Assembly (NCBI RefSeq): GCF_036507355.1
Contig: NZ_AP027877.1
Source: Escherichia coli
GTDB taxonomy: Bacteria > Pseudomonadota > Gammaproteobacteria > Enterobacterales > Enterobacteriaceae
Strand: one strand, 5' to 3'
DNA: 64,000 bases
Of this stretch, positions 43,557 through 54,582 are shown one piece after another; the stretch's first letter is position 1; every line of letters starts with the position of its first letter. A program made the translations under genes and the position numbers. Below the pieces are notes generated by a model, which ran no database searches, had not been told where the DNA came from, and saw nothing but the letters and a program-made list of their open reading frames with translations.

Positions 43557-44191
43557 TGTTTTGCCGCCTTGATGAGGGTGGTTTTCACCGGGAAATAATC
43601 CGCGCCGAGATACTGTTCCGACTGGCGAATTTGCCCTTCGCTGTCGATCCAATAGCGGTTATGCCAGCGCGCCTGGTTGGTGGAGACTTCTTCGTCCAGC
43701 ACGCGAACCGGGGTTTCATCGCTGCCGACTTTGACGGTATCGGTGCCATCCCATTTGAAGACTGAGCGTGCGGTGGCGTAGCGTACCTGCTGGTATTCGG
43801 TCCAGCCCATCGTGCGCGTCCAGGTTGCACCATCAATGATTTGTGCGGGTTTAATCAGCGGGTCGGCGGCAAGGTTATTCACCTCAATCAAGTTGTCGCC
43901 GCCAAGCAGAGTCTTCACCAGACGACCATGTTGTGTGACGAGAGTGGCCTGATCCTGAGTGACCCATTTTTGTTGTCCGTCTTCAGCGAAGGCCAGCACC
44001 ACAAACAACTGCGGCCCGCCATTAAGCTGCATGTACTGGCTGGCGTAGGGCATATTTTGAATATCATCGTCCGTCAGCTGTACACCTGGCGTACCGAACA
44101 GACTGTCCCACAGTGAATTGCCCAGCTCTTTAGTCGTGGCTGAACAGGCCTGTAATAGCAGGCAGATAAGAATGAGTGCAGGTCGCTTCAC
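43553..44191 (-). CDS. yjbF: YjbF, lipoprotein of the yjbEFGH operon
   Basis: GTG start gives 212 aa (KRPALILICLLLQAC lipobox); overlaps the yjbG start by 4 bp. Confidence 0.8.
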   Translation of the reverse strand: MKRPALILICLLLQACSATTKELGNSLWDSLFGTPGVQLTDDDIQNMPYASQYMQLNGGPQLFVVLAFAEDGQQKWVTQDQATLVTQHGRLVKTLLGGDNLIEVNNLAADPLIKPAQIIDGATWTRTMGWTEYQQVRYATARSVFKWDGTDTVKVGSDETPVRVLDEEVSTNQARWHNRYWIDSEGQIRQSEQYLGADYFPVKTTLIKAAKQ

Positions 44192-44304
44192 GACTCTTCT
44201 CCAGAGGGGCAGAATAACCACACCGGAGTGTGGTTATGGTAAATCCCTTCATACTTCAAGCCACAGATGCGATGACTCGAATTATTTTGGGGATACATAC
44301 TTTA

Positions 44305-44547
44305 TTACTGGGTACTGGTGGTCGTGGTTGTTGTGGTCCCGGTATTAGAACCATCACCGCCACCGGTTGCCGCGAGCGCGACACCCACCGCCGAGCTTAC
44401 GGTGCTGACGCTGGTCGCGGAGGAACTCCCCGCCGAAACCGACGTTGCTGCCGACCCTGCCGCTTCGCCCACCTGTACAGGTGCAGCCCACGCAGAAGTC
44501 GCCGCAAGCGCAGATATGGCAAAAATGCCATACAGAACTTTTTTCAT
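44305..44547 (-). CDS. yjbE: YjbE, small secreted Gly/Ser/Thr-rich protein
   Basis: 80 aa; signal peptide [21 protein letters not shown]; low-complexity tail with [10 protein letters not shown]. Confidence 0.9.
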
Positions 44548-44854
44548 AACAATTTCCCTTCATTGAATGAATGGAGATTTACCCAAAAACATTTCGGGCG
44601 GGATCGAGTATACACAACTAAAGCATGCGAATTACGGCGCGGGGAATTAGAGATGGGGTTTTAGGATAATTGGAATGAATATCAAATATAAGCTACATCT
44701 TATATATAAATAACATTAAAAATCATAATGTTAAAATAAAAGTAAAAGTAATTAATCTGAGTATTTTCCGAAATCAATCACGATTAAAAATCTATTTTAG
44801 GATTAACCTCACGGTATGATTTCCGTTAAATCACAGACAAGGGGATTTATCTGA

Positions 44855-44882
44855 TAAAAAAATGCCGACATAACGTCGGCAT
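44855..44882 (-). terminator. rho-independent terminator downstream of pgi
   Basis: Minus-strand ATGCCGACGTTATGTCGGCAT hairpin followed by TTTTTTT. Confidence 0.6.
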
Positions 44883-44929
44883 TGTTATTAAGGTTATTTA
44901 ATCAATCGTGCTATGTATTAATTGCCGAA

Positions 44930-45055
44930 TACGATGTACATATCGGCATCGACCTGTAGGCCTGATAAGACGCGACCGCGTCGCATCAGGCATCGGTTGC
45001 CGGATGCGGCGTGAACGCCTTATCCGGCCTACATAGCGGCATCAGGCATGAACGA
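44930..45055. repeat. REP / BIME cluster after the pgi stop
   Basis: GTAGGCCTGATAAGACGCG...CGCATCAGGCATCGG and TGCCGGATGCGGCGTGAACGCCTTATCCGGCCTACA units. Confidence 0.65.
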
Positions 45056-45058
45056 TGA

Positions 45059-46708
45059 TTAACCGCGCCACGCTTTATAGCGGTTAATCAGACCATTGGT
45101 CGAGCTATCGTGGCTGCTGATTTCTTTATCATCTTTCAGCTCTGGCAGAATACGGTTCGCCAGTTGTTTACCCAGCTCCACGCCCCACTGGTCGAAGGTG
45201 AAGATGTTCAGGATCACGCCCTGAGTAAAGATTTTGTGCTCATACAGCGCAATCAACGCACCCAGGCTGAACGGAGTGATTTCACGCAGCAGGATGGAGT
45301 TGGTCGGGCGGTTACCTTCGAACACTTTGAACGGCACCACGTAGTCAAGCGTTGCCGGATCTTTACCCTGATCGCGATATTCCTGCTCAACCACTTCGCG
45401 GGATTTACCAAACGCCAGCGCTTCGGTCTGAGCAAAGAAGTTAGACAGCAGTTTCTGGTGATGATCAGAGAGCGGGTTATGGGTGATAGCCGGGGCGATG
45501 AAATCGCACGGTACCATTTTGGTTCCCTGATGGATCAGCTGGTAGAACGCGTGCTGACCGTTAGTGCCTGGTTCACCCCAGATAATCGGGCCAGTCTGGT
45601 AATCCACAACGTTACCGTTACGGTCAACATACTTACCGTTGGACTCCATATTGCCCTGCTGGAAGTACGCCGCAAAACGGTGCATATACTGGTCATACGG
45701 CAGAATCGCTTCAGTTTCCGCACCAAAGAAATTGTTGTACCAGATGCCAATCAGCGCCAGCAAGACAGGCAGGTTTTTCTCGGCAGGCGTGGTGGAGAAA
45801 TGCTTGTCCATCGCGTGTGCGCCAGAAAGCAGTTCAACGAAGTTATCAAAGCCGATGGAGAGAACAATCGACAGGCCAATCGCTGACCACAAAGAGTAAC
45901 GGCCGCCGACCCAGTCCCAGAACTCGAACATGTTGGCAGTATCAATACCAAACTCGCCAACGGCTTTGGCATTGGTTGAGAGCGCCGCAAAGTGTTTCGC
46001 AACGTGTTTTTCATCACCTGCCGCTTTCAGGAACCAGTCACGCGCGCTATGGGCGTTGGTCATGGTTTCCTGAGTGGTGAAGGTTTTAGATGCTACCAGG
46101 AACAGCGTGGTTTCCGGGTTTACTTTTTTCAGCACTTCCGCGATATGAGTCCCATCGACGTTAGAAACAAAGTGCATGTTCAGGTGATTTTTGTACGGAC
46201 GCAGTGCTTCGGTCACCATGTACGGGCCGAGGTCAGAACCACCGATCCCGATGTTCACTACGTCAGTGATTGCTTTGCCGGTATAACCCTTCCACTCACC
46301 GGAAATAATCGCTTCCGAGAAGGTTTTCATCTTCTCCAGCACCGCGTTGACTTCCGGCATTACGTCTTTGCCATCAACCAGAATCGGGGTATTGCTACGG
46401 TTACGCAGCGCTACGTGCAGCACGGCGCGGTTTTCAGTGCGGTTGATCTTCTCGCCAGAGAACATCGACTTAATCGCGCCCGCCAGATCGCACTCTTTCG
46501 CCAGATCTTGTAATTTCGCCAGCGTCTCTTCAGTGATGCGGTTTTTGGAGTAATCCACCAGCATCTGATCGTCGAAGGTTGCGGAGAACTTAGAAAAACG
46601 ATCGCCGTCTTTAGCAAAAAGATCGGCGATCGTAACGTCTTTCATTTCATCGAAGTGTTTCTGTAGTGCCTGCCAGGCAGCGGTCTGCGTTGGATTGATG
46701 TTTTTCAT
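45059..46708 (-). CDS. pgi: glucose-6-phosphate isomerase
   Basis: ATG at 46708 gives 549 aa ([23 protein letters not shown]...). Confidence 0.98.
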
Positions 46709-46939
46709 TAGCAATACTCTTCTGATTTTGAGAATTGTGACTTTGGAAGATTGTAGCGCCAGTCACAGAAAAATGTGATGGTTTTAGTGCCGTTAGCGTA
46801 ATGTTGAGTGTAAACCCTTAGCGCAGTGAAGCATTTATTAGCTGAACTACTGACCGCCAGGAGTGGATGAAAAATCCGCATGACCCCGTCGTTGACAACC
46901 GCCCCGCTCACCCTTTATTTATAAATGTACTACCTGCGC

Positions 46940-47232
46940 TAGCGCAGGCCAGAAGAGGCGCGTTGCCCAAGTAACGGTGTTGGAGGAGCCAGTCCTGTGA
47001 TAACACCTGAGGGGGTGCATCGCCGAGGTGATTGAACGGCTGGCCACGTTCATCATCGGCTACAGGGGCTGAATCCCCTGGGTTGTCACCAGAAGCGTTC
47101 GCAGTCGGGCGTTTCGCAAGTGGTGGAGCACTTCTGGGTGAAAATAGTAGCGAAGTATCGCTCTGCGCCCACCCGTCTTCCGCTCTTCCCTTGTGCCAAG
47201 GCTGAAAATGGATCCCCTGACACGAGGTAGTT
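46940..47232 (+). promoter_or_regulatory. lysC 5' leader / lysine riboswitch (L-box)
   Basis: ~300-nt structured leader upstream of lysC containing AGAGGCGC and GGAGGAGCC-type L-box segments; boundaries approximate. Confidence 0.7.
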
Positions 47233-48582
47233 ATGTCTGAAATTGTTGTCTCCAAATTTGGCGGTACCAGCGTAGCTGATTTTGACGCCATGAACCGCAG
47301 CGCTGATATTGTGCTTTCTGATGCCAACGTGCGTTTAGTTGTCCTCTCGGCTTCTGCTGGTATCACTAATCTGCTGGTCGCTTTAGCTGAAGGGCTGGAA
47401 CCTGGCGAGCGATTCGAAAAACTCGACGCTATTCGCAACATCCAGTTTGCCATTCTGGAACGTCTGCGTTACCCGAACGTTATCCGTGAAGAGATTGAAC
47501 GTCTGCTGGAGAACATTACTGTTCTGGCAGAAGCGGCGGCGCTGGCAACGTCTCCGGCGCTGACAGATGAACTGGTCAGCCACGGCGAGCTGATGTCGAC
47601 CCTGCTGTTTGTCGAGATCCTGCGCGAACGCGATGTTCAGGCACAGTGGTTTGATGTACGTAAAGTGATGCGTACCAACGACCGATTTGGTCGTGCAGAG
47701 CCAGATGTAGCCGCGCTGGCGGAACTGGCCGCGCTGCAGCTGCTCCCACGCCTCAATGAAGGCTTAGTGATCACCCAGGGATTTATCGGTAGCGAAAATA
47801 AAGGTCGTACAACGACGCTTGGCCGTGGAGGCAGCGATTATACGGCAGCCTTGCTGGCGGAGGCTTTACACGCATCTCGTGTTGATATCTGGACCGACGT
47901 CCCGGGCATCTACACCACCGATCCACGCGTGGTTTCCGCAGCAAAACGCATTGATGAAATCGCGTTTGCCGAAGCAGCAGAGATGGCAACTTTTGGTGCA
48001 AAAGTACTGCATCCGGCAACATTGCTACCCGCAGTACGCAGCGATATCCCGGTCTTTGTCGGCTCCAGCAAAGACCCACGCGCAGGTGGTACGCTGGTGT
48101 GCAATAAAACTGAAAATCCGCCGCTGTTCCGCGCGCTGGCGCTTCGTCGCAATCAGACTCTGCTCACTTTGCACAGCCTGAATATGCTGCATTCTCGCGG
48201 CTTCCTCGCGGAAGTTTTCGGCATCCTCGCGCGGCATAATATTTCGGTAGACTTAATCACCACGTCAGAAGTGAGCGTGGCATTAACCCTTGATACCACC
48301 GGTTCAACCTCCACTGGCGATACGTTGCTGACGCAATCTCTGCTGATGGAGCTTTCCGCACTGTGCCGGGTGGAGGTGGAAGAAGGTCTGGCGCTGGTCG
48401 CGTTGATTGGCAATGACCTGTCAAAAGCCTGCGGCGTTGGCAAAGAGGTGTTCGGCGTACTGGAACCGTTCAACATTCGCATGATTTGTTACGGCGCATC
48501 CAGCCATAACCTGTGCTTCCTGGTGCCCGGCGAAGATGCCGAGCAGGTGGTGCAGAAGCTGCATTTTAATTTGTTTGAGTAA
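47233..48582 (+). CDS. lysC: lysine-sensitive aspartokinase III
   Basis: 449 aa; MSEIVVSKFGGTSVADFDAMNRSADIVL...; two C-terminal ACT domains. Confidence 0.98.
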   Translation: MSEIVVSKFGGTSVADFDAMNRSADIVLSDANVRLVVLSASAGITNLLVALAEGLEPGERFEKLDAIRNIQFAILERLRYPNVIREEIERLLENITVLAEAAALATSPALTDELVSHGELMSTLLFVEILRERDVQAQWFDVRKVMRTNDRFGRAEPDVAALAELAALQLLPRLNEGLVITQGFIGSENKGRTTTLGRGGSDYTAALLAEALHASRVDIWTDVPGIYTTDPRVVSAAKRIDEIAFAEAAEMATFGAKVLHPATLLPAVRSDIPVFVGSSKDPRAGGTLVCNKTENPPLFRALALRRNQTLLTLHSLNMLHSRGFLAEVFGILARHNISVDLITTSEVSVALTLDTTGSTSTGDTLLTQSLLMELSALCRVEVEEGLALVALIGNDLSKACGVGKEVFGVLEPFNIRMICYGASSHNLCFLVPGEDAEQVVQKLHFNLFE

Positions 48583-48726
48583 TATTTCCCTACTGGCGTA
48601 TAACGCTCACCAATTGTTATACGCCATCCTCACTGAAAACATAGATTAAATAATATCTGAAAAGCAAAATCACTCCTGTAGAACAGTATTATAACCACCG
48701 AAAAATATCATTTAACAGGAGTGTTA

Positions 48727-49656
48727 ATGGCTACTTTAATGGAAAAGGATGCACTTTTAAACGGCGCCAGTCAGTGCATCGCGTTTTTATCAAATATCGT
48801 CGACAGTTGTTTTTCCTCACAAGTTCAGGACTCAGACGATGAGCTATCACAATTAGTCAGCTATCGCGACAATCTTTATTCCACTCCAGCAGAAATTGTT
48901 GATTTTACACAGGGAATGTTACGCCTCCAGCAGGTCAGAAAAAAGTATCAGCGTGAATTTAATAATACTGCGCATTCAGAAAATAAAGCGTCTTTTGATT
49001 CTATTTGGCAGCGTCTGACAAACCATGACGTCACATCCCAGCAGAGTCCCATTGGTTTTGTTTTAGGTGGACAACCAGGAGCCGGAAAATCCATCCTAAT
49101 CGAATTAGCAAAAAGGGAAACAAAGAATAATATAATGATTATTAATGGTGATGATTTCAGATTTCTACACCCTGATTTTAATTATATATATCAAACTTAT
49201 GGCGACGATTTTGTTACCCATACGGCAAAATTTTCCGGCGAAACGGTCGAACGTGCAATAGAGAGGGCCATAGCCAATAAACTCAATATTGTTGTCGAAG
49301 GAACATTTCGTAATGCCGCTACGCCGCTACAAACATTAAAAAAACTCAAAGATGCAGGCTACCGAACAGAAGTCATGATAAAAACCACCTCAGCGGCATT
49401 AAGCTGGGAAAGCACCAACGAACGGTATAATAAGGACAAAGAGGCGGGAAATATCGCCCGCAAAGTGGATAAAAATCACCATGATATCGTCACCGATTTG
49501 CTAGCAGAAAATGCCAGCAAGGTGTTTGCTTCAAACCTGGCAGATAAGTTTGCGGTGTATTCGCGTGAGAAGATGATATTTAGTTCACAAGCGGCAACCA
49601 ATTGCGATATTGCAACGCTTATACAAAATGAAATCAGCGGAAGTGCACAAGAATAA
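48727..49656 (+). CDS. ezeT: EzeT-like zeta-toxin family kinase with N-terminal cis-inhibitory extension
   Basis: ATG at 48727 with SD AGGAG 6 nt upstream gives 309 aa (track ORF starts at GTG 48721); Walker A GGQPGAGKS matching zeta/PezT GGQPGSGKT, preceded by ~110 aa non-kinase domain; name assigned from memory of the E. coli EzeT description. Confidence 0.7.
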   Translation: MATLMEKDALLNGASQCIAFLSNIVDSCFSSQVQDSDDELSQLVSYRDNLYSTPAEIVDFTQGMLRLQQVRKKYQREFNNTAHSENKASFDSIWQRLTNHDVTSQQSPIGFVLGGQPGAGKSILIELAKRETKNNIMIINGDDFRFLHPDFNYIYQTYGDDFVTHTAKFSGETVERAIERAIANKLNIVVEGTFRNAATPLQTLKKLKDAGYRTEVMIKTTSAALSWESTNERYNKDKEAGNIARKVDKNHHDIVTDLLAENASKVFASNLADKFAVYSREKMIFSSQAATNCDIATLIQNEISGSAQE

Positions 49657-49679
49657 TAAAAGCTGATGACCTGAAATAA

Positions 49680-49700
49680 CGCCGGGCATCACGCCCGGCG
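49680..49700. terminator. bidirectional hairpin between convergent ezeT-like and nucleotidyltransferase genes
   Basis: CGCCGGGC-ATCA-GCCCGGCG inverted repeat between the two stops. Confidence 0.5.
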
Positions 49701-50480
49701 CATTACCGTCTGGTACAGTAAGCTATCCAGTTTCTTAACGTCCCCTTCTCTACTATCCGGTAACACAGGCGGAATTTCCCCACGCGCCAGTTCCGCATGG
49801 ATAAACGCATGTAGCAATGGACGGCGTGGGCCATATTCCGCTTCACCCGCACGCTGTTTACGTTCCAGTAATTCATCTATTTCTGCGCGTAAGGCCGCAT
49901 CCAACTCACTTCCCGCCAGCAATTCGGAAAAACGCATTGGCGGTACGCCTTTTCCCGCTTCAACCCAACGCACGGCCAGCAACGGACGCAGCACGTAAAA
50001 GTATTTTTTCAGTCGAACTTCATCGCCCTGCAAATATCCGCGGAAGTTTTTCTGCGCCATCGAATAGTAATGCCAGCGCGCACGCAGCGGAGAAAACCAC
50101 GTTGGGACCATTGCCTTAAGCGCCGTTATCGTTTCTTCATCTTGTTGATAGACCACCGGAGAATCCAGCCATTCTATCAGCGTCGGGTTCGCGCCTTTCA
50201 ATAATCCCAGCGCCTTACGCCACTCCCAACCGGAAACATCTAACTCGTCGTCGATGGGCAGCTCAATAACATCGCGCGGTGACTCTACTCGCAGATACCA
50301 TTCCAGCGGGTGAACATACAAAAACCGTACATCGTAGTCGCTGTCGGGCGAGGCAAATCCCCAACCGCGACTCCCCGATTCACAGGCGTACAGTACTTTC
50401 ACATCATACCGCCGTTCAATTTCTTTTAACTGCTGCGATACCCTTTCGCGCATCGCAGCACTGACTCCATTTAATGGCAT
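49689..50480 (-). CDS. Pol-beta-superfamily nucleotidyltransferase, uncharacterised
   Basis: 263 aa from the ATG at 50480 (track ORF starts at GTG 50489 overlapping the upstream stop); GS-x10-DxD motif in VLYACESGSRGWGFASPDSDYDVRF; second gene of a two-gene operon. Confidence 0.7.
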   Translation of the reverse strand: MPLNGVSAAMRERVSQQLKEIERRYDVKVLYACESGSRGWGFASPDSDYDVRFLYVHPLEWYLRVESPRDVIELPIDDELDVSGWEWRKALGLLKGANPTLIEWLDSPVVYQQDEETITALKAMVPTWFSPLRARWHYYSMAQKNFRGYLQGDEVRLKKYFYVLRPLLAVRWVEAGKGVPPMRFSELLAGSELDAALRAEIDELLERKQRAGEAEYGPRRPLLHAFIHAELARGEIPPVLPDSREGDVKKLDSLLYQTVMRRA

Positions 50481-50485
50481 GTTAC

Positions 50486-51613
50486 TCACCCTTTGATATT
50501 AACCAACCCGTGCAGAACCTGATCCAGACCGCCAAATACAGAGATGTTATCAATCCGCTCAGCCACTCTCTCCAGCGTTTCCAGCTCTTTTAAACGCAAC
50601 GCTACCGGATTGTTCTCCATGACTTTGGCGGTGTTCAGTAACGAGCGCGTCGCTGCCGTTTCTTCACGTCGGCGAATCACATTCGCCTGCGCAGATTTCT
50701 CTGCCTCAACCAGCTGCGCAAGGATATTTTTCATATCGCCAGGCAGGACGATATCTTTCACCCCTAATGAAGCAATCTCCATACCGAACGGCTTCATGCG
50801 CGATTTCACCTGTTCGCTGACAACGTCATCAATGACCTGTTTATCTTCCAGCAATTCATCCAGCGTACGCGTACCTACCACTTCACGCAGTGCAAATTGC
50901 AATTCCCGATACAAATGATCAATCGGCTTCGTTAACTGACTAAATGCTAATAACACGTCGCTGTAGCGCCAGTTAGCCGCGAGGTTAATCCGCAGATTGA
51001 CCTTATCTTTCGTTAAGATTTCTTGCCCGCTGACTTCCAGTACCTGCAAGCGGGTGTCAACCACTTCAGCTTCAACCAGATGGTTAATTTTCCAGTACGC
51101 GGTAAGCCCCGGCGGTAACAGCGCCTGCGTTTCACCATCGATTTTCAGCACGCCTACATGCCAGGCCGGAACCTGCACCGTCAGTATCGCATCGCGGCCT
51201 TTAACAACTCCTTTGCGCCGTGGCTGTAATACCGCATTCATCACCTCCGTTTGTACCGGGACTTGCTGCGTATTCATCCGCACCAGCGTCAAATCATCCT
51301 CTACACGCCAGTACAAACGACGCGTTGATGGCGGCAGGATCTCCAACAAAATACCGTCCATATACAACACCCCGGCTTCAGTCTCCGACAAGTCTGCCAC
51401 CAGGCAATATTTCTCCACCCAATCAGGCTGAAAGCGGCGCAAATAATCCGCAAGCACGTCGGGAACTTCGCTACCATCCAGCGTAATCAGCAACACTTCC
51501 GGGGTATTTAACCAGGGTAAAATATGCTCGCCTGCATGCAGCACTTTGTAGTAATCGCCGTTTCTGGAGAGTAATGCCAGCTGATCTTTTCTTACGCTTA
51601 TTTTTTTAATCAT
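50486..51613 (-). CDS. SPFH/band-7 (stomatin-like) domain protein with unique N-terminal domain
   Basis: 375 aa; C-terminal half carries SPFH signature (DKVNLRINLAANWRY..., ...LVEAEKSAQANVIRRREETAATRSLLNTAKVMENNPVALRLKELETLERVAERI...); N-terminal ~185 aa lack a hydrophobic anchor; ATG at 51613 with AAGGA SD. Confidence 0.75.
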   Translation of the reverse strand: MIKKISVRKDQLALLSRNGDYYKVLHAGEHILPWLNTPEVLLITLDGSEVPDVLADYLRRFQPDWVEKYCLVADLSETEAGVLYMDGILLEILPPSTRRLYWRVEDDLTLVRMNTQQVPVQTEVMNAVLQPRRKGVVKGRDAILTVQVPAWHVGVLKIDGETQALLPPGLTAYWKINHLVEAEVVDTRLQVLEVSGQEILTKDKVNLRINLAANWRYSDVLLAFSQLTKPIDHLYRELQFALREVVGTRTLDELLEDKQVIDDVVSEQVKSRMKPFGMEIASLGVKDIVLPGDMKNILAQLVEAEKSAQANVIRRREETAATRSLLNTAKVMENNPVALRLKELETLERVAERIDNISVFGGLDQVLHGLVNIKG

Positions 51614-52141
51614 TATCTATTCCTTGCTTAATAGCCGTCGCGGAAGCAGACACGAAGCGACAGGGGAATTCCCTTTTGCCTGTTACCCGGCATCTTTATC
51701 GGCGACGTTATCGGGGACCGCAGACTGCGCAATCCCTCATTTTTTATTTAATAAGTTACAACCAGTATTCATTTCAGGAATGAATGTGGGAATCGAACCC
51801 GTAATTGGCGTCAAAGGCTGATGGAACACGCCCGGAAAACAGCCTGGCCGTTCCTGGTGTGCCGACGGGGTTTAACCCCCTTTGTAATTCAGTATCAACG
51901 CAAAAGTGTTATTGCGAGAAGCGTGCCAGAAGTGATAAAAAATTTTAATTACATGAAAAATAAAGATTTAATAAATCATTATTGTTTGTAGGGGGAGATT
52001 TTTTCGCTAAATTTGTATCTGTATTTATCGTCAATTATCAAGAAAGATAAATATTTAAGAAGAGAACAAAGGAATATTATCAGTTCTGCTTGCAAATAAA
52101 TTCCCGTACACTGAACTATCCGATTAACAGAGGGCACCATC

Positions 52142-52414
52142 ATGGCACTCCCCCGTATTACTCAAAAAGAGATGACTGAGCGTGAACAGCGCGAACTGAA
52201 GACGCTGCTGGATCGCGCGCGTATTGCACATGGTCGCGTGCTGACCAACGCCGAAACCAACAGCATTAAGAAAGAGTACATCGATAAATTAATGGTCGAG
52301 CGTGAGGCTGAAGCGAAAAAAGCCCGCCAGTTAAAGAAAAAGCAGGCTTATAAACCGGATCCTGAAGCGTCATTTAGCTGGTCAGCAAATACGTCGACGC
52401 GCGGCAGGCGCTGA
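52142..52414 (+). CDS. yjbD: YjbD (DUF3811-type small protein)
   Basis: 90 aa; MALPRITQKEMTEREQRELKTLLDRAR... Confidence 0.85.
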   Translation: MALPRITQKEMTEREQRELKTLLDRARIAHGRVLTNAETNSIKKEYIDKLMVEREAEAKKARQLKKKQAYKPDPEASFSWSANTSTRGRR

Positions 52415-53287
52415 TTAGCGCCCCTTCTTTTTACGCCCCGGCGAGGTAAAACGCTTACCGTTGGACGCCGGGCGACCGCCTTTTTCCGCCGTTTTTTCCA
52501 TCTTAACGACTGGACGTTTGATGCCCGCCGTTTTCGGTTTAGCCTTCGCTTTAGGTTTTGCCTCGGAAGAGGAATTTTCAATGAGCTTAAAGAGGTCGAT
52601 TAACTCATCGTCGGTTAAATCGCGCCACTCCCCCAGTGGAATGCCGTTTAAGCTGACGTTCATAATGCGCGTACGTTCCAGCTTTTTCACTTCATAGCCG
52701 AAATGCTCGCACATGCGCCGGATCTGACGGTTCAGCCCCTGCACCAGGGTAATGCGGAAGACAAACGGCGCTTCTTTTTTGACTTTGCACTTTTTAGTCA
52801 CCGTCCCGAGGATCGGCACCCCCGCCCCCATACCACGAATAAATTCATCGGTAATCGGTTTATCGACCGTCACCAGATACTCTTTCTCATGATCGTTACC
52901 CGCACGGAGGATCTTATTCACCAGATCGCCGTGATTGGTGAGGAAAATCAGCCCCTGGGAGTCTTTATCCAGGCGGCCAATCGGGAACACGCGTTTGCTG
53001 TGGTTAACAAAATCGACAATGTTATCGCGCTCGCCATCTTCGGTGGTGCTGACAATACCGACGGGTTTGTTCAGGGCGATAAGTACCAAATCTTCGGCTT
53101 CCCGAGGCTCAATCAACTGACCGTTTACTTTCACAACGTCGCCGGGTTTCACCTGATCGCCAATGGTGGCTCGCTTGCCATTAAGGAACACATTGCCTTG
53201 CTCGATATAGCGATCCGCTTCGCGGCGTGAGCAAATTCCGCTTTCGCTGATGTATTTATTTAAACGGACTGATGAGTCGGGCAGCAT
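52415..53287 (-). CDS. rluF: 23S rRNA pseudouridine synthase RluF
   Basis: 290 aa; S4 domain plus RsuA-family catalytic motif ([17 protein letters not shown]); basic C-terminal tail. Confidence 0.93.
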
Positions 53288-53634
53288 AAATTCTCCTGTA
53301 AAACGCGGAATATACCGTACCTCTTAGCGGGGAAAAACAGGGTTATGCGGCAACGTCGAAATTAAATGTGATCTGCCACGCCTTTTATCACAAAAGTGTC
53401 TCCGGAAGTACAATGCAAATTTGCCTGGCAAAATAAGGATAATCAACATATTACGAATCGCTGCACACCTGTGCTGATGACTACTGCGCAGAGAAACAAA
53501 TGTGCAAGAGAAAGCGCTATTTCTCCCCATGCAAAGAGTGAAAAATCGCTTTGAAAGGCCATCATGATGGGGTTATATCAGATCAAGCGGTGAGAAAGCG
53601 TATTTGCACAAATGTGCAGAACCAGGAGGCGGCA

Positions 53635-54582
53635 ATGGAAAACAGTGACGATATCCGTTTGATTGTGAAGATTGCCCAACTCTATTACGAACAGGATATG
53701 ACGCAGGCGCAAATCGCGCGCGAACTGGGTATTTACCGCACCACCATCAGCCGCTTGCTTAAACGAGGCCGCGATCAGGGAATTGTCACCATCGCCATCA
53801 ACTATGACTACAACGAAAATCTCTGGCTCGAGCAGCAACTGAAGCAAAAGTTTGGCCTGAAAGACGTTGTGGTGGTGTCGGGAAATGATGAGGATGAAGA
53901 GACTCAACTGGCGATGATGGGGTTACACGGCGCGCAACTGCTGGATCGCTTGCTGGAGCCTGGCGATATTGTCGGTTTTTCCTGGGGTCGCGCGGTGAGC
54001 GCACTGGTTGAAAACTTGCCGCAAGCGGGGCAATCGCGGCAGTTAATCTGCGTGCCAATTATTGGCGGACCGTCCGGTAAACTCGAAAGCCGCTATCACG
54101 TAAACACATTAACCTACAGCGCGGCAGCGAAGCTGAAAGGGGAATCGCATCTCGCGGATTTTCCGGCTCTGCTGGATAACCCCTTAATTCGTAATGGGAT
54201 CATGCAGTCTCAGCACTTTAAAACCATCTCTGCCTACTGGGATAATCTGGATGTCGCCCTGGTGGGAATTGGCTCACCGGCCATTCGCGACGGCGCTAAC
54301 TGGCATACGTTTTATGGTGGTGAAGAGAGTGACGACCTGAATGCCCGCCAGGTTGCTGGCGATATTTGCTCGCGCTTTTTTGATATTCACGGCGCAATGG
54401 TTGAAACGAATATGAGCGAAAAAACACTCTCTATCGAAATGAATAAATTAAAGCAGGCACGATATTCAATTGGCATTGCCATGAGTGAAGAAAAATACAG
54501 CGGAATTATTGGTGCACTGTGTGGAAAATATATTAATTGTCTGGTAACGAATAGCAGCACAGCTGAACTATTACTGAAATAA
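53635..54582 (+). CDS. sorC: SorC-family transcriptional regulator of the sorbose operon
   Basis: ATG at 53635 with SD AGGAGG gives 315 aa (MENSDDIRLIVKIAQLYYEQDMTQAQIARELG...); N-terminal HTH plus sugar-binding domain; track ORF starts at an upstream TTG. Confidence 0.8.
   Translation: MENSDDIRLIVKIAQLYYEQDMTQAQIARELGIYRTTISRLLKRGRDQGIVTIAINYDYNENLWLEQQLKQKFGLKDVVVVSGNDEDEETQLAMMGLHGAQLLDRLLEPGDIVGFSWGRAVSALVENLPQAGQSRQLICVPIIGGPSGKLESRYHVNTLTYSAAAKLKGESHLADFPALLDNPLIRNGIMQSQHFKTISAYWDNLDVALVGIGSPAIRDGANWHTFYGGEESDDLNARQVAGDICSRFFDIHGAMVETNMSEKTLSIEMNKLKQARYSIGIAMSEEKYSGIIGALCGKYINCLVTNSSTAELLLK

Follow-up and report, generated by a model that had tools for sequence, protein, structure and literature searches.

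In the 64-kb stretch of Escherichia DNA that we analyzed (the window), the gap that separates an SPFH/Band-7 gene from yjbD is quite probably the control region and 5′ leader of a decayed RNA-repair operon of the RtcR type, and a tRNA-like fragment within it is, with the same likelihood, a T arm of the b7a-tRNA lineage. A conserved sigma-54 promoter is oriented toward the SPFH gene, and the predicted leader behind it contains, in order, a three-way junction, a T hairpin, a closed hairpin, the motif ACUGGUUGU, a short hairpin and a long 3′ hairpin (Table 1). Because the same RNA lies between rtcR and the Band-7, rtcB and rlaP genes of relatives, we infer that the fragment is the T arm of the RNA partner of Band-7 operons. 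By comparison among these sequences, the Escherichia form appears to be reduced to the T arm and a closed acceptor-like stem, and the feature as a whole looks like a reduced and permuted version of an RNA type that had been predicted, set within a larger leader without a match in Rfam.

Table 1. Genes, control elements and predicted RNA elements around the gap, in window coordinates.
Feature	Positions	Strand	Remarks
RlaP nucleotidyltransferase gene	49689-50489	minus	Pfam RlaP (PF10127) 1e-96, full length
SPFH/Band-7 slipin gene	50486-51613	minus	Pfam Band_7 2.5e-27, full length
Operon behind the leader (SPFH and rlaP)	49689-51613	minus	
yjbD	52142-52414	plus	
Enhancer (UAS)-like block TTTATC-N6-GATAA-N4-CGATA-N5-AGATA	52013-52056	minus	by-eye comparison
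A/T-rich spacer with IHF-like site	51943-51960	minus	conserved block, alignment A1
Predicted sigma-54 promoter CTGGCACGCTTCTCGCA	51913-51929	minus	-24 GG at 51927-51926, -12 GC at 51915-51914
Predicted 5′ leader RNA of the SPFH-rlaP operon, ~290 nt	51614-51902	minus	start inferred from the -12 element
5′ three-way junction: P0 (CUGA/UCAG), P1 (GGGG-GUUAAA-CCCC) and long P2-P3 hairpin	51817-51892	minus	alignment A3, RNAalifold
T hairpin ACGGG-UUCGAUU-CCCAC	51786-51802	minus	loop with U54 U55 C56 R57 A58 pattern at 51797-51793
Closed 7-bp hairpin AUUCAUU-CCUGA-AAUGAAU in acceptor-stem position	51767-51785	minus	directly abuts T stem
Conserved ACUGGUUGU, candidate D-loop mimic	51758-51766	minus	2-4 flanking pairs
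Hairpin GGGAUUGCG-CAGUC-UGCGGUCCC	51714-51736	minus	stem sequences differ in other genera, by alignment without formal count
Long irregular 3′ hairpin, outer helix CGUCGC/GCGACG	51635-51708	minus	alignment A5, RNAalifold

A T arm in the gap upstream of the SPFH gene

The window is ordered pgi, a lysine riboswitch, lysC, a zeta-toxin-family ORF, the RlaP gene, the SPFH gene, the gap, yjbD, rluF and the sorbose operon. The gap itself (51614-52141; 528 bp) is bounded by two start codons, that of the SPFH gene (ATG at 51613, minus strand) and that of yjbD (ATG at 52142, plus strand), and neither of its ORFs (51624-51821 and 51821-51991) has a match in Pfam. A sequence-only reading of the window had described these 528 bp as non-coding and as the leader of the SPFH operon, and both descriptions stand, with the leader proper taking up ~290 nt behind the predicted sigma-54 promoter. 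The operon consists of the SPFH and RlaP genes only, the gene for the RtcB ligase being absent from it, and PADLOC defence models returned nothing meaningful for the three proteins of the segment. Among 5426 complete E. coli genomes, 1636 (~30%) carry the 528-bp gap.

The same reading had singled out GTGGGAATCGAACCCGT (51786-51802, plus strand) as the complement of a tRNA T stem-loop, and the correspondence is exact: on the minus strand, which is also the strand of the SPFH gene, positions 51802-51786 read ACGGG-UUCGAUU-CCCAC, i.e., a stem enclosing a 7-nt loop of the pattern U54 U55 C56 R57 A58 N N. In the window, the stem comprises three G-C pairs and one C.A, and the SPFH ATG comes 176-186 nt downstream of the loop on the minus strand. 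The accompanying claim that no cloverleaf can be built around the fragment was borne out by the tRNA-finder search that had been suggested as a check: ARAGORN called no tRNA gene in the whole 64-kb window, and permissive Rfam searches (E≤10) of 44000-54000 and of 51614-52141 were without a match to RF00005, the gap itself matching no family. A tRNA gene or pseudogene was rejected on this basis, with only noise returned by ARAGORN for the window and by Rfam for the 10 kb and the 528 bp.

Taken alone, the T-loop motif is weak evidence. The 64 kb contain a single match to the consensus GGTTCRANTCC where 0.20 would be expected, and at least one match turns up in 18 of 100 shuffles; judged on the window alone, coincidence is a fair option. 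To the evidence of the window can be added that of its relatives, for which we scanned one genome per species with the SPFH protein: at least 600 stretches were matched, 573 relatives were confirmed, and 80 loci were kept. At nearly every Enterobacterales locus, a T loop (GTTCRANYC) is located 180-260 nt upstream of the SPFH start and on the same strand, with flanks that differ, and this placement is the same in ~50 relatives. The loop is invariant in all 36 of the enterobacterial sequences that we aligned (alignment A3), and the block GGTTCGA.TCC accounts for 10 of the 14 invariant columns in an alignment with a mean column identity of 60%. The third pair of the stem is G-C in 26 of these sequences, A-U in 8 and G-U in 2, and the fourth pair, which is C.A in the window, is U-A in EC16, C-G in B1 and U.G in MOD1. 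Because the T arm is conserved across genera with compensatory changes in its stem, it is not a coincidence, as the sequence-only reading had allowed, and we rejected a chance match.

Promoter, structured leader and tRNA-like module

The core of the predicted promoter, TGGCACGCTTCTCGCA (51913-51928), has the -24 GG and the -12 GC at the correct spacing, and the sole match to TGGCAC-N5-TNGCA in the 64-kb window is at 51913-51929. The position of this sigma-54 element is conserved in more than 50 loci: all Enterobacterales loci have TGGCAC-N5-T(G/C)GCA at 310-390 nt upstream of the SPFH start and ~130 nt upstream of the T loop, and Gilliamella and Methylococcaceae have the same element farther upstream. 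The enhancer-like block, recognized by eye from the upstream regions of more than 30 loci and from the K-12 rtcBA promoter, is centered ~130 bp upstream of the predicted start site. In relatives, this GATA-rich block abuts the start codon of a divergent rtcR; a related block occurs at the K-12 rtcBA promoter, and K-12 also retains the block upstream of yjbD. By this resemblance, 52013-52056 is a candidate binding site for RtcR. The A/T-rich spacer reads TTTTTCATGTAATTAAAA in the window and AATCAATnnATTAAAA in most relatives, and its IHF-like site, which is degenerate in the window and in E. coli, is a candidate site.

The E. coli rtcBA promoter reportedly has both a UAS and an IHF site (PMC9650030). 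The promoter in the window resembles it in the -24 GG, the -12 GC and the AT-rich spacer of IHF type, as well as in an upstream block with CGATAT and TATCC-type repeats at ~-130. The two differ in that the leader in the window is ~290 nt long and structured, whereas the K-12 rtcB leader is ~40 nt, and in that the operon in the window comprises Band-7 and RlaP, as opposed to RtcB and RtcA, and has no adjacent rtcR. Since rtcR is not adjacent in the window, the promoter would depend on a putative activator acting in trans. All but two of the 5426 complete E. coli genomes (5424) have a match to rtcR, which in 4838 of them is near full length; between E. coli RtcR and that of the Citrobacter locus, identity is only 62%. 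Scanning the gap on the relevant strand for sigma-70 promoters and terminators detected none; its sole terminator-like match (51867-51879) is on the plus strand and is the complement of hairpin P1.

The whole leader (~290 nt, from the promoter to the SPFH start) aligns across Enterobacterales. Applied to the 36 sequences, RNAalifold recovered P1, P2-P3 and the T hairpin, to which the P0 closing helix and one T-stem pair were added by hand. For the 5′ domain and T hairpin, 26 of 31 pairs show compensatory changes and 93.2% of cells are paired, a level reached by none of 500 column-shuffled alignments (80.5%) and compared with ~46% in slid controls; for the 3′ hairpin (22 sequences), compensatory changes affect 12 of 22 pairs and paired cells make up 95.4%, versus 88.1% when shuffled and ~45% when slid; and these counts were made on the same alignments that yielded the structures, such that the contrast with the slid controls is overstated. 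A large number of the double changes lie between clades whose helix sequences are wholly different (e.g., Providencia versus Escherichia). Covariation thus supports the predicted junction, T hairpin and 3′ hairpin.

A covariance model of the 5′ domain and T hairpin (R1) matches the window with 83 bits (E 3e-18; 51783-51904, minus strand). Across loci, the model has exactly one strong match each, always upstream of SPFH, and it has no match at the K-12 lysC and rtc loci. The window leader contains two private pair-breaking changes (51822 and 51801) and has the lowest R1 score among Enterobacteriaceae matches. Thermodynamic folding of 51700-51900 alone gave no signal (z = 0.03), and the structure of the leader appears to be visible only by comparison between species. 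A pairing of the 5′ end with the Shine-Dalgarno, possible in the window, was dropped since it is not conserved. On the alignments, the ~300-base leader appears to be a structured RNA without an Rfam match, and the T arm its most conserved piece.

The closed hairpin that follows the T arm was parsed in 19 sequences of Escherichia/Citrobacter/Klebsiella type, in which its stem is 5-7 bp and begins always 0-1 nt after the T stem. It occurs in compensatory variants (UUCAUU/AAUGAA, UUCACU/AGUGAA and UCACC/GGUGA), and it may be coaxially stacked on the T stem. Within this window-type group, ACUGGUUGU is nearly invariant and its flanking stem varies (AC/GU, ACAC/GUGU, UAAA/UUUA); the order of elements, which is that of YrlA, suggests that the motif could mimic a D loop. 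When the sequences flanking the T, acceptor-like and D elements were examined for pairings that could stand in for an anticodon stem, E. coli had none. Citrobacter and Pseudocitrobacter could form one such helix, CGAUGA/UCAU(C/A)G, but since E. coli cannot, we make no claim for it.

Relatives of the locus and likeness to known RNAs

The RNA differs in form among relatives. A covarying open acceptor stem (e.g., UGCGAA/UUCGCA, AUCAGUG/CACUGAA or GUAGGUG/CACCAAA) encloses the T arm in Kosakonia, Erwinia, Mangrovibacter, Lonsdalea and Proteus; together with the linker AGUCGGUU and an ACC(A) tail, it makes what appears to be a mini-tRNA that has neither D stem nor anticodon arm. One or two tRNA genes, with odd and variable anticodons, are called by ARAGORN at the equivalent position in Gilliamella and in beta- and other gammaproteobacteria, and the tRNA genes at the syntenic place in distant loci (e.g., L041, L054 and L061) score 51-59 bits with RF00005. 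The window and all Enterobacterales loci are negative for such resemblance to authentic tRNA by ARAGORN and Rfam. Two betaproteobacterial loci have a 40-bit match to R1 with a complete tRNA within ~10 nt after it, and this adjacency indicates that the junction/T-arm module and the full tRNA are two neighboring elements. From their distribution, it appears that Enterobacterales retained the junction/T-arm module and lost the full tRNA, and that the element in the window is the former; the RNA partner would occur in three forms, namely a full tRNA, an open mini-tRNA and a closed permuted form.

An RNA of this kind, b7a-tRNA (Band-7-associated), was predicted by Burroughs and Aravind in 2016 next to Band-7 and RtcB, and a preprint states that it ‘strongly resembles’ authentic tRNA and was unvalidated as of 2018 (bioRxiv 10.1101/312249). 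Our literature search found no later validation of b7a-tRNA and no explanation of the function of either the RNA or Band-7. As with b7a-tRNA, the RNA in the window is immediately upstream of Band-7/SPFH, on the same strand, and has a canonical T arm; its context is likewise one of RNA repair (RtcR/RtcB/RlaP), and the position is occupied in distant relatives by tRNAs recognized by ARAGORN and RF00005. It is unlike b7a-tRNA in having no cloverleaf, anticodon arm or free acceptor end, in that its T arm is situated inside a ~290-nt leader, the 5′ junction and 3′ hairpin of which are outside the b7a-tRNA description, and in the absence of RtcB from the window operon.

YrlA offers a second comparison, being in its solved structure a circularly permuted tRNA mimic with a T stem-loop, a closed acceptor stem-loop and a D stem-loop that is encoded in an RtcR-controlled repair operon (bioRxiv 10.1101/312249). 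What may be the same order of elements is seen at 51802-51758, where the T hairpin directly adjoins the closed 5-7-bp hairpin and both show covariation, and the RNA in the window is similarly a non-coding RNA in an RNA-repair operon of RtcR/sigma-54 type. However, the window contains no Ro60/Rsr gene (the neighbors being SPFH, RlaP, a zeta-like kinase and yjbD) and no recognizable Ro-binding stem, and Rfam models of Y-RNA type had no match in the gap at E≤10. Moreover, the D element in the window is a ACUGGUUGU loop with 2-4 flanking pairs, with no anticodon-stem analogue in E. coli, and the RNA is a leader joined to the mRNA and not a separate gene between coding genes. We regard the resemblance to YrlA as a lead, and not as evidence of membership. 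With canonical tRNAs (RF00005), the RNA has in common a G-C-rich stem topped by the 7-nt loop UUCGAUU and, behind it, a 7-bp helix where an acceptor stem would be; a D stem of usual length, an anticodon arm and the 3′ CCA are all missing.

In relatives, an RtcR gene (525-548 codons, with the domains PF06956 RtcR/CARF and Sigma54_activat) is divergent from the promoter, as in Citrobacter, Kosakonia, Gilliamella and others, and yjbD sits at this place in the window. The operon downstream of the leader encodes Band-7, RtcB and RlaP, and in Xenorhabdus also KptA; RtcB is between Band-7 and RlaP in Kosakonia, Providencia, Xenorhabdus, Gilliamella and one Citrobacter. Four Citrobacter species have the locus at the same lysC-yjbD site, but they differ in gene content: rtcR is there, one species has rtcB and two do not, and rlaP has been lost in one. 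Because these four species share the site, what the sequence-only reading had called an islet is ancestral DNA that was lost by K-12.

That reading had also suggested aligning the junction with genomes lacking the islet, and K-12 is one of these. In K-12, lysC adjoins yjbD, and homology to the window stops at the lysC stop codon (48582) and resumes at ~52012; K-12 is missing 48583-52011, including the promoter, leader and genes, and carries 122 unrelated nucleotides between the homology ends. The only part of these 122 nt that can be traced is a 26-nt remnant of the 3′ hairpin of the leader (22 of 26 identical), and the enhancer block is still in place. This block and the leader remnant imply a deletion, rather than the absence of an insertion, and the K-12 lysC-yjbD junction appears to be the deletion scar of an RNA-repair locus. 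The E. coli segment, in turn, appears to be the ancestral locus in decay, with rtcR and rtcB gone and yjbD now abutting the enhancer block. The locus is chromosomal: matches designated as plasmids are chromosomes, chromids or very large replicons, and matches to phages cover only part of rlaP.

Possible function, rival readings and present use

RtcR is known to be activated by tRNA fragments bearing a terminal 2′,3′-cyclic phosphate (PMC7790460). A possible mechanism for the locus is that tRNA damage would activate RtcR, supplied in trans from the rtcR-rtcBA locus, and that activated RtcR would bind 52013-52056, allowing sigma-54 RNA polymerase to transcribe the operon. In the resulting leader, the T hairpin, the acceptor-like hairpin and the UGG loop would form a mimic of the tRNA elbow on a 12-bp stacked helix, by which the leader, or a piece processed from it, could be recognized by tRNA-binding proteins. 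In this way, the leader RNA might be to Band-7 and RlaP what Y RNA is to Ro60: a cofactor, a scaffold or a decoy. Induction of the operon by RtcR in trans is probable. More tentatively, the leader may be cut to yield a stable, free RNA of ~130-170 nt, made up of the junction and the permuted elbow mimic, that would be induced by RtcR on tRNA nicking and would form an RNP with a Band-7 oligomer and RlaP. If this were true, the RtcR stress regulon would include a second ‘Y-RNA-like’ particle, independent of Ro, that natural E. coli have and K-12 does not.

The main rival to such a mimic is a leader that is purely cis-regulatory, of the riboswitch or protein-binding type, and that affects mRNA stability, translation or elongation; the T loop would then be merely a structural block, as in RNase P and some riboswitches, with neither tRNA mimicry nor a free RNA. 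Several features of the leader speak for it: there is no terminator-like site on the minus strand between the RNA and the SPFH start, the 3′ hairpin stops just (~10 nt) ahead of the Shine-Dalgarno (51620-51625), conservation spans the whole leader and not only the T arm, and the closed acceptor stem has no free CCA end. At the same time, the Shine-Dalgarno is outside every conserved helix, no ligand-type pocket or known family was recognized, and the position is held in relatives by open-acceptor ACC(A) mini-tRNAs or complete tRNA genes, which resemble processed free RNAs. We view a purely cis-regulatory leader as conceivable, if not the reading we would choose, and it is compatible with our interpretation of the gap as the control region and leader of an RtcR-type operon. 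Of the DNA next to yjbD, the sequence-only reading had said that it is very AT-rich and probably silenced by H-NS. The AT-richness is real (27% GC over 51900-52099), and the absence of a sigma-70-like promoter from the scan of this stretch would be in keeping with silencing; but the AT-rich part is upstream of the promoter and outside the leader, which is itself 44-49% GC, and its blocks, conserved across genera at fixed distances from the sigma-54 promoter, have the usual layout of enhancer, bend and promoter, with which H-NS binding, even if real, is compatible. From its sequence, the spacer and enhancer of a conserved sigma-54 promoter seem a better account of the stretch, and H-NS silencing is unlikely to be its main role.

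The remaining proposal of the sequence-only reading, that the T-arm 17-mer is an attachment-site scar left by a tRNA at the edge of the islet, or else a chance match, does not survive the comparisons made above. The expectation of 0.2 matches per window to the 11-nt T-loop consensus, its occurrence in 18% of shuffles and the absence of 48583-52011 from K-12 are what give it plausibility, and the attachment sites of integrative islands at tRNA 3′ ends do likewise place T-arm-like sequence in strain-variable DNA. Nevertheless, the fragment is 210 bp inside the K-12 breakpoint, no direct repeats join the two ends of the segment (48582/48583 and ~52012), and the fragment has no repeat partner and no parent tRNA gene; nor is there an integrase among the three ORFs of the segment (zeta-like, RlaP and SPFH). 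Furthermore, synteny in Citrobacter indicates that the segment is ancestral, the locus is on chromosomes and not on mobile plasmids or phages, the enhancer block and leader remnant of K-12 point to deletion, and the motif, flanked by covarying stems, is unchanged from genus to genus. The scar was rejected on these grounds, and we attach almost no credence to either a scar or a chance match. A different possibility is that the leader is a functionless relic in E. coli, its promoter dead after the loss of rtcR and rtcB and its sequence decaying. Both genes are indeed missing from the locus, about two-thirds of E. coli genomes, K-12 included, are without it, IS1 and prophages have disrupted it in other strains, and the window copy has the two private pair-breaking changes. 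Against this, among five Escherichia alleles the leader differs by 3.7-7%, compared with 9-27% at SPFH third codon positions and 9-26% in upstream non-coding DNA, and is thus 2-4 times better conserved than either; SPFH differs by only 1-3% at codon positions 1 and 2, both SPFH and RlaP are full length, and the T-stem variants of E. coli fall along a compensatory path (U-A, U.G, C-G). These levels of divergence suggest that the leader is under purifying selection within Escherichia. Its conservation, the intact genes and the near-universal match to rtcR argue for continued use, presumably with RtcR in trans, and we find a relic quite improbable.

The RNA partner of Band-7 appears, from this locus, to be much larger than a tRNA and to have three further covarying domains, and the locus supplies a structured RNA with strong covariation and no match in Rfam. 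About 30% of sequenced E. coli carry the RNA, in each case with a sigma-54 promoter ahead of intact genes for Band-7 and RlaP, and the likely activator is present in almost every E. coli. As such, this question of bacterial RNA repair becomes tractable by the ordinary genetics of E. coli in natural isolates.

Deletion and substitution in the lysC-yjbD interval

In E. coli K-12, two pieces of the locus persist in the spacer between lysC and yjbD: the enhancer block, rich in GATA, and 26 nt from the 3' hairpin of the leader RNA (22 of 26 positions identical). Because both pieces persist, the K-12 arrangement is a deletion scar; for about 95 nt of this spacer no source could be traced.

In the window, the leader itself is retained, and two substitutions private to its lineage, at 51822 and 51801 (-), disrupt conserved pairs. 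At the first site, the base of P2 carries A in the window versus G in all 35 other sequences; G also stands there in O145 RM9872, which is 99.4% identical to the window over the gap between the SPFH gene and yjbD. At the second, a C creates a C.A in the T stem.

The zeta-like kinase ORF and other window elements

The Citrobacter loci lack the Zeta_toxin/AAA_33 P-loop kinase ORF, which in the window lies between lysC and rlaP and is convergent with the latter. In O145 RM9872 the ORF carries a frameshift, in 14EC033 (L003) it is interrupted by IS1, and in strain B1 (L086) phage tail genes stand in its place. The ORF may encode a polynucleotide kinase that partners the repair genes, or may be an unrelated insertion. 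Rfam matches in the window to STnc430, naRNA4 and the lysine riboswitch are, as expected, normal content for that part of the chromosome.

Features of the window and of compared loci (coordinates local to each)
Feature	Locus	Coordinates	Strand
lysC-yjbD spacer, K-12	L001	2633-2884	
STnc430 (Rfam)	window	44744-44893	
naRNA4 element, REP-type (Rfam)	window	44959-45029	
lysC lysine riboswitch (Rfam)	window	46945-47141	
Zeta_toxin/AAA_33 ORF	window	48721-49656	+
SPFH gene, Xenorhabdus	L039	5929-7566	
KptA/Tpt1 gene, X. hominickii	L039	9688-10212	
SPFH gene, Gilliamella	L041	5950-7578	
tRNA array	L060	1911-3188	as Band-7 locus
tRNA array	L064	3863-5457	as Band-7 locus
tRNA array	L065	1691-5721	as Band-7 locus
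tRNA array	L079	1373-5440	as Band-7 locus
tRNA array	L082	861-5719	as Band-7 locus
tRNA array	L083	215-2455	as Band-7 locus

Outlying records and variants among relatives

On a 3.7-kb contig assigned by binning to 'Collinsella sp.' (JAIJJM010000308.1, L004), the encoded SPFH protein is about 98% identical to that of E. coli, and the same leader is present; the contig probably entered this bin as a contaminant. Partial rlaP-like DNA occurs in Pseudomonas and Brevundimonas jumbo phages (H44-H51), where it is annotated as nucleotidyltransferase or YcgL.

In Xenorhabdus and Gilliamella, the SPFH protein has about 545 residues instead of 375 and contains an additional, weaker match to the query; part of the protein has apparently been duplicated, or a segment inserted. 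In the Xenorhabdus hominickii operon, a gene for a KptA/Tpt1 RNA 2'-phosphotransferase follows rlaP on its 3' side, adding to the RNA-repair character of this locus. Among the beta- and gammaproteobacterial genomes and MAGs, several have 7 to 21 tRNA genes arrayed directly 5' of the Band-7 locus and on the same strand; a spare tRNA set may sometimes travel with the Band-7 RNA-repair module.
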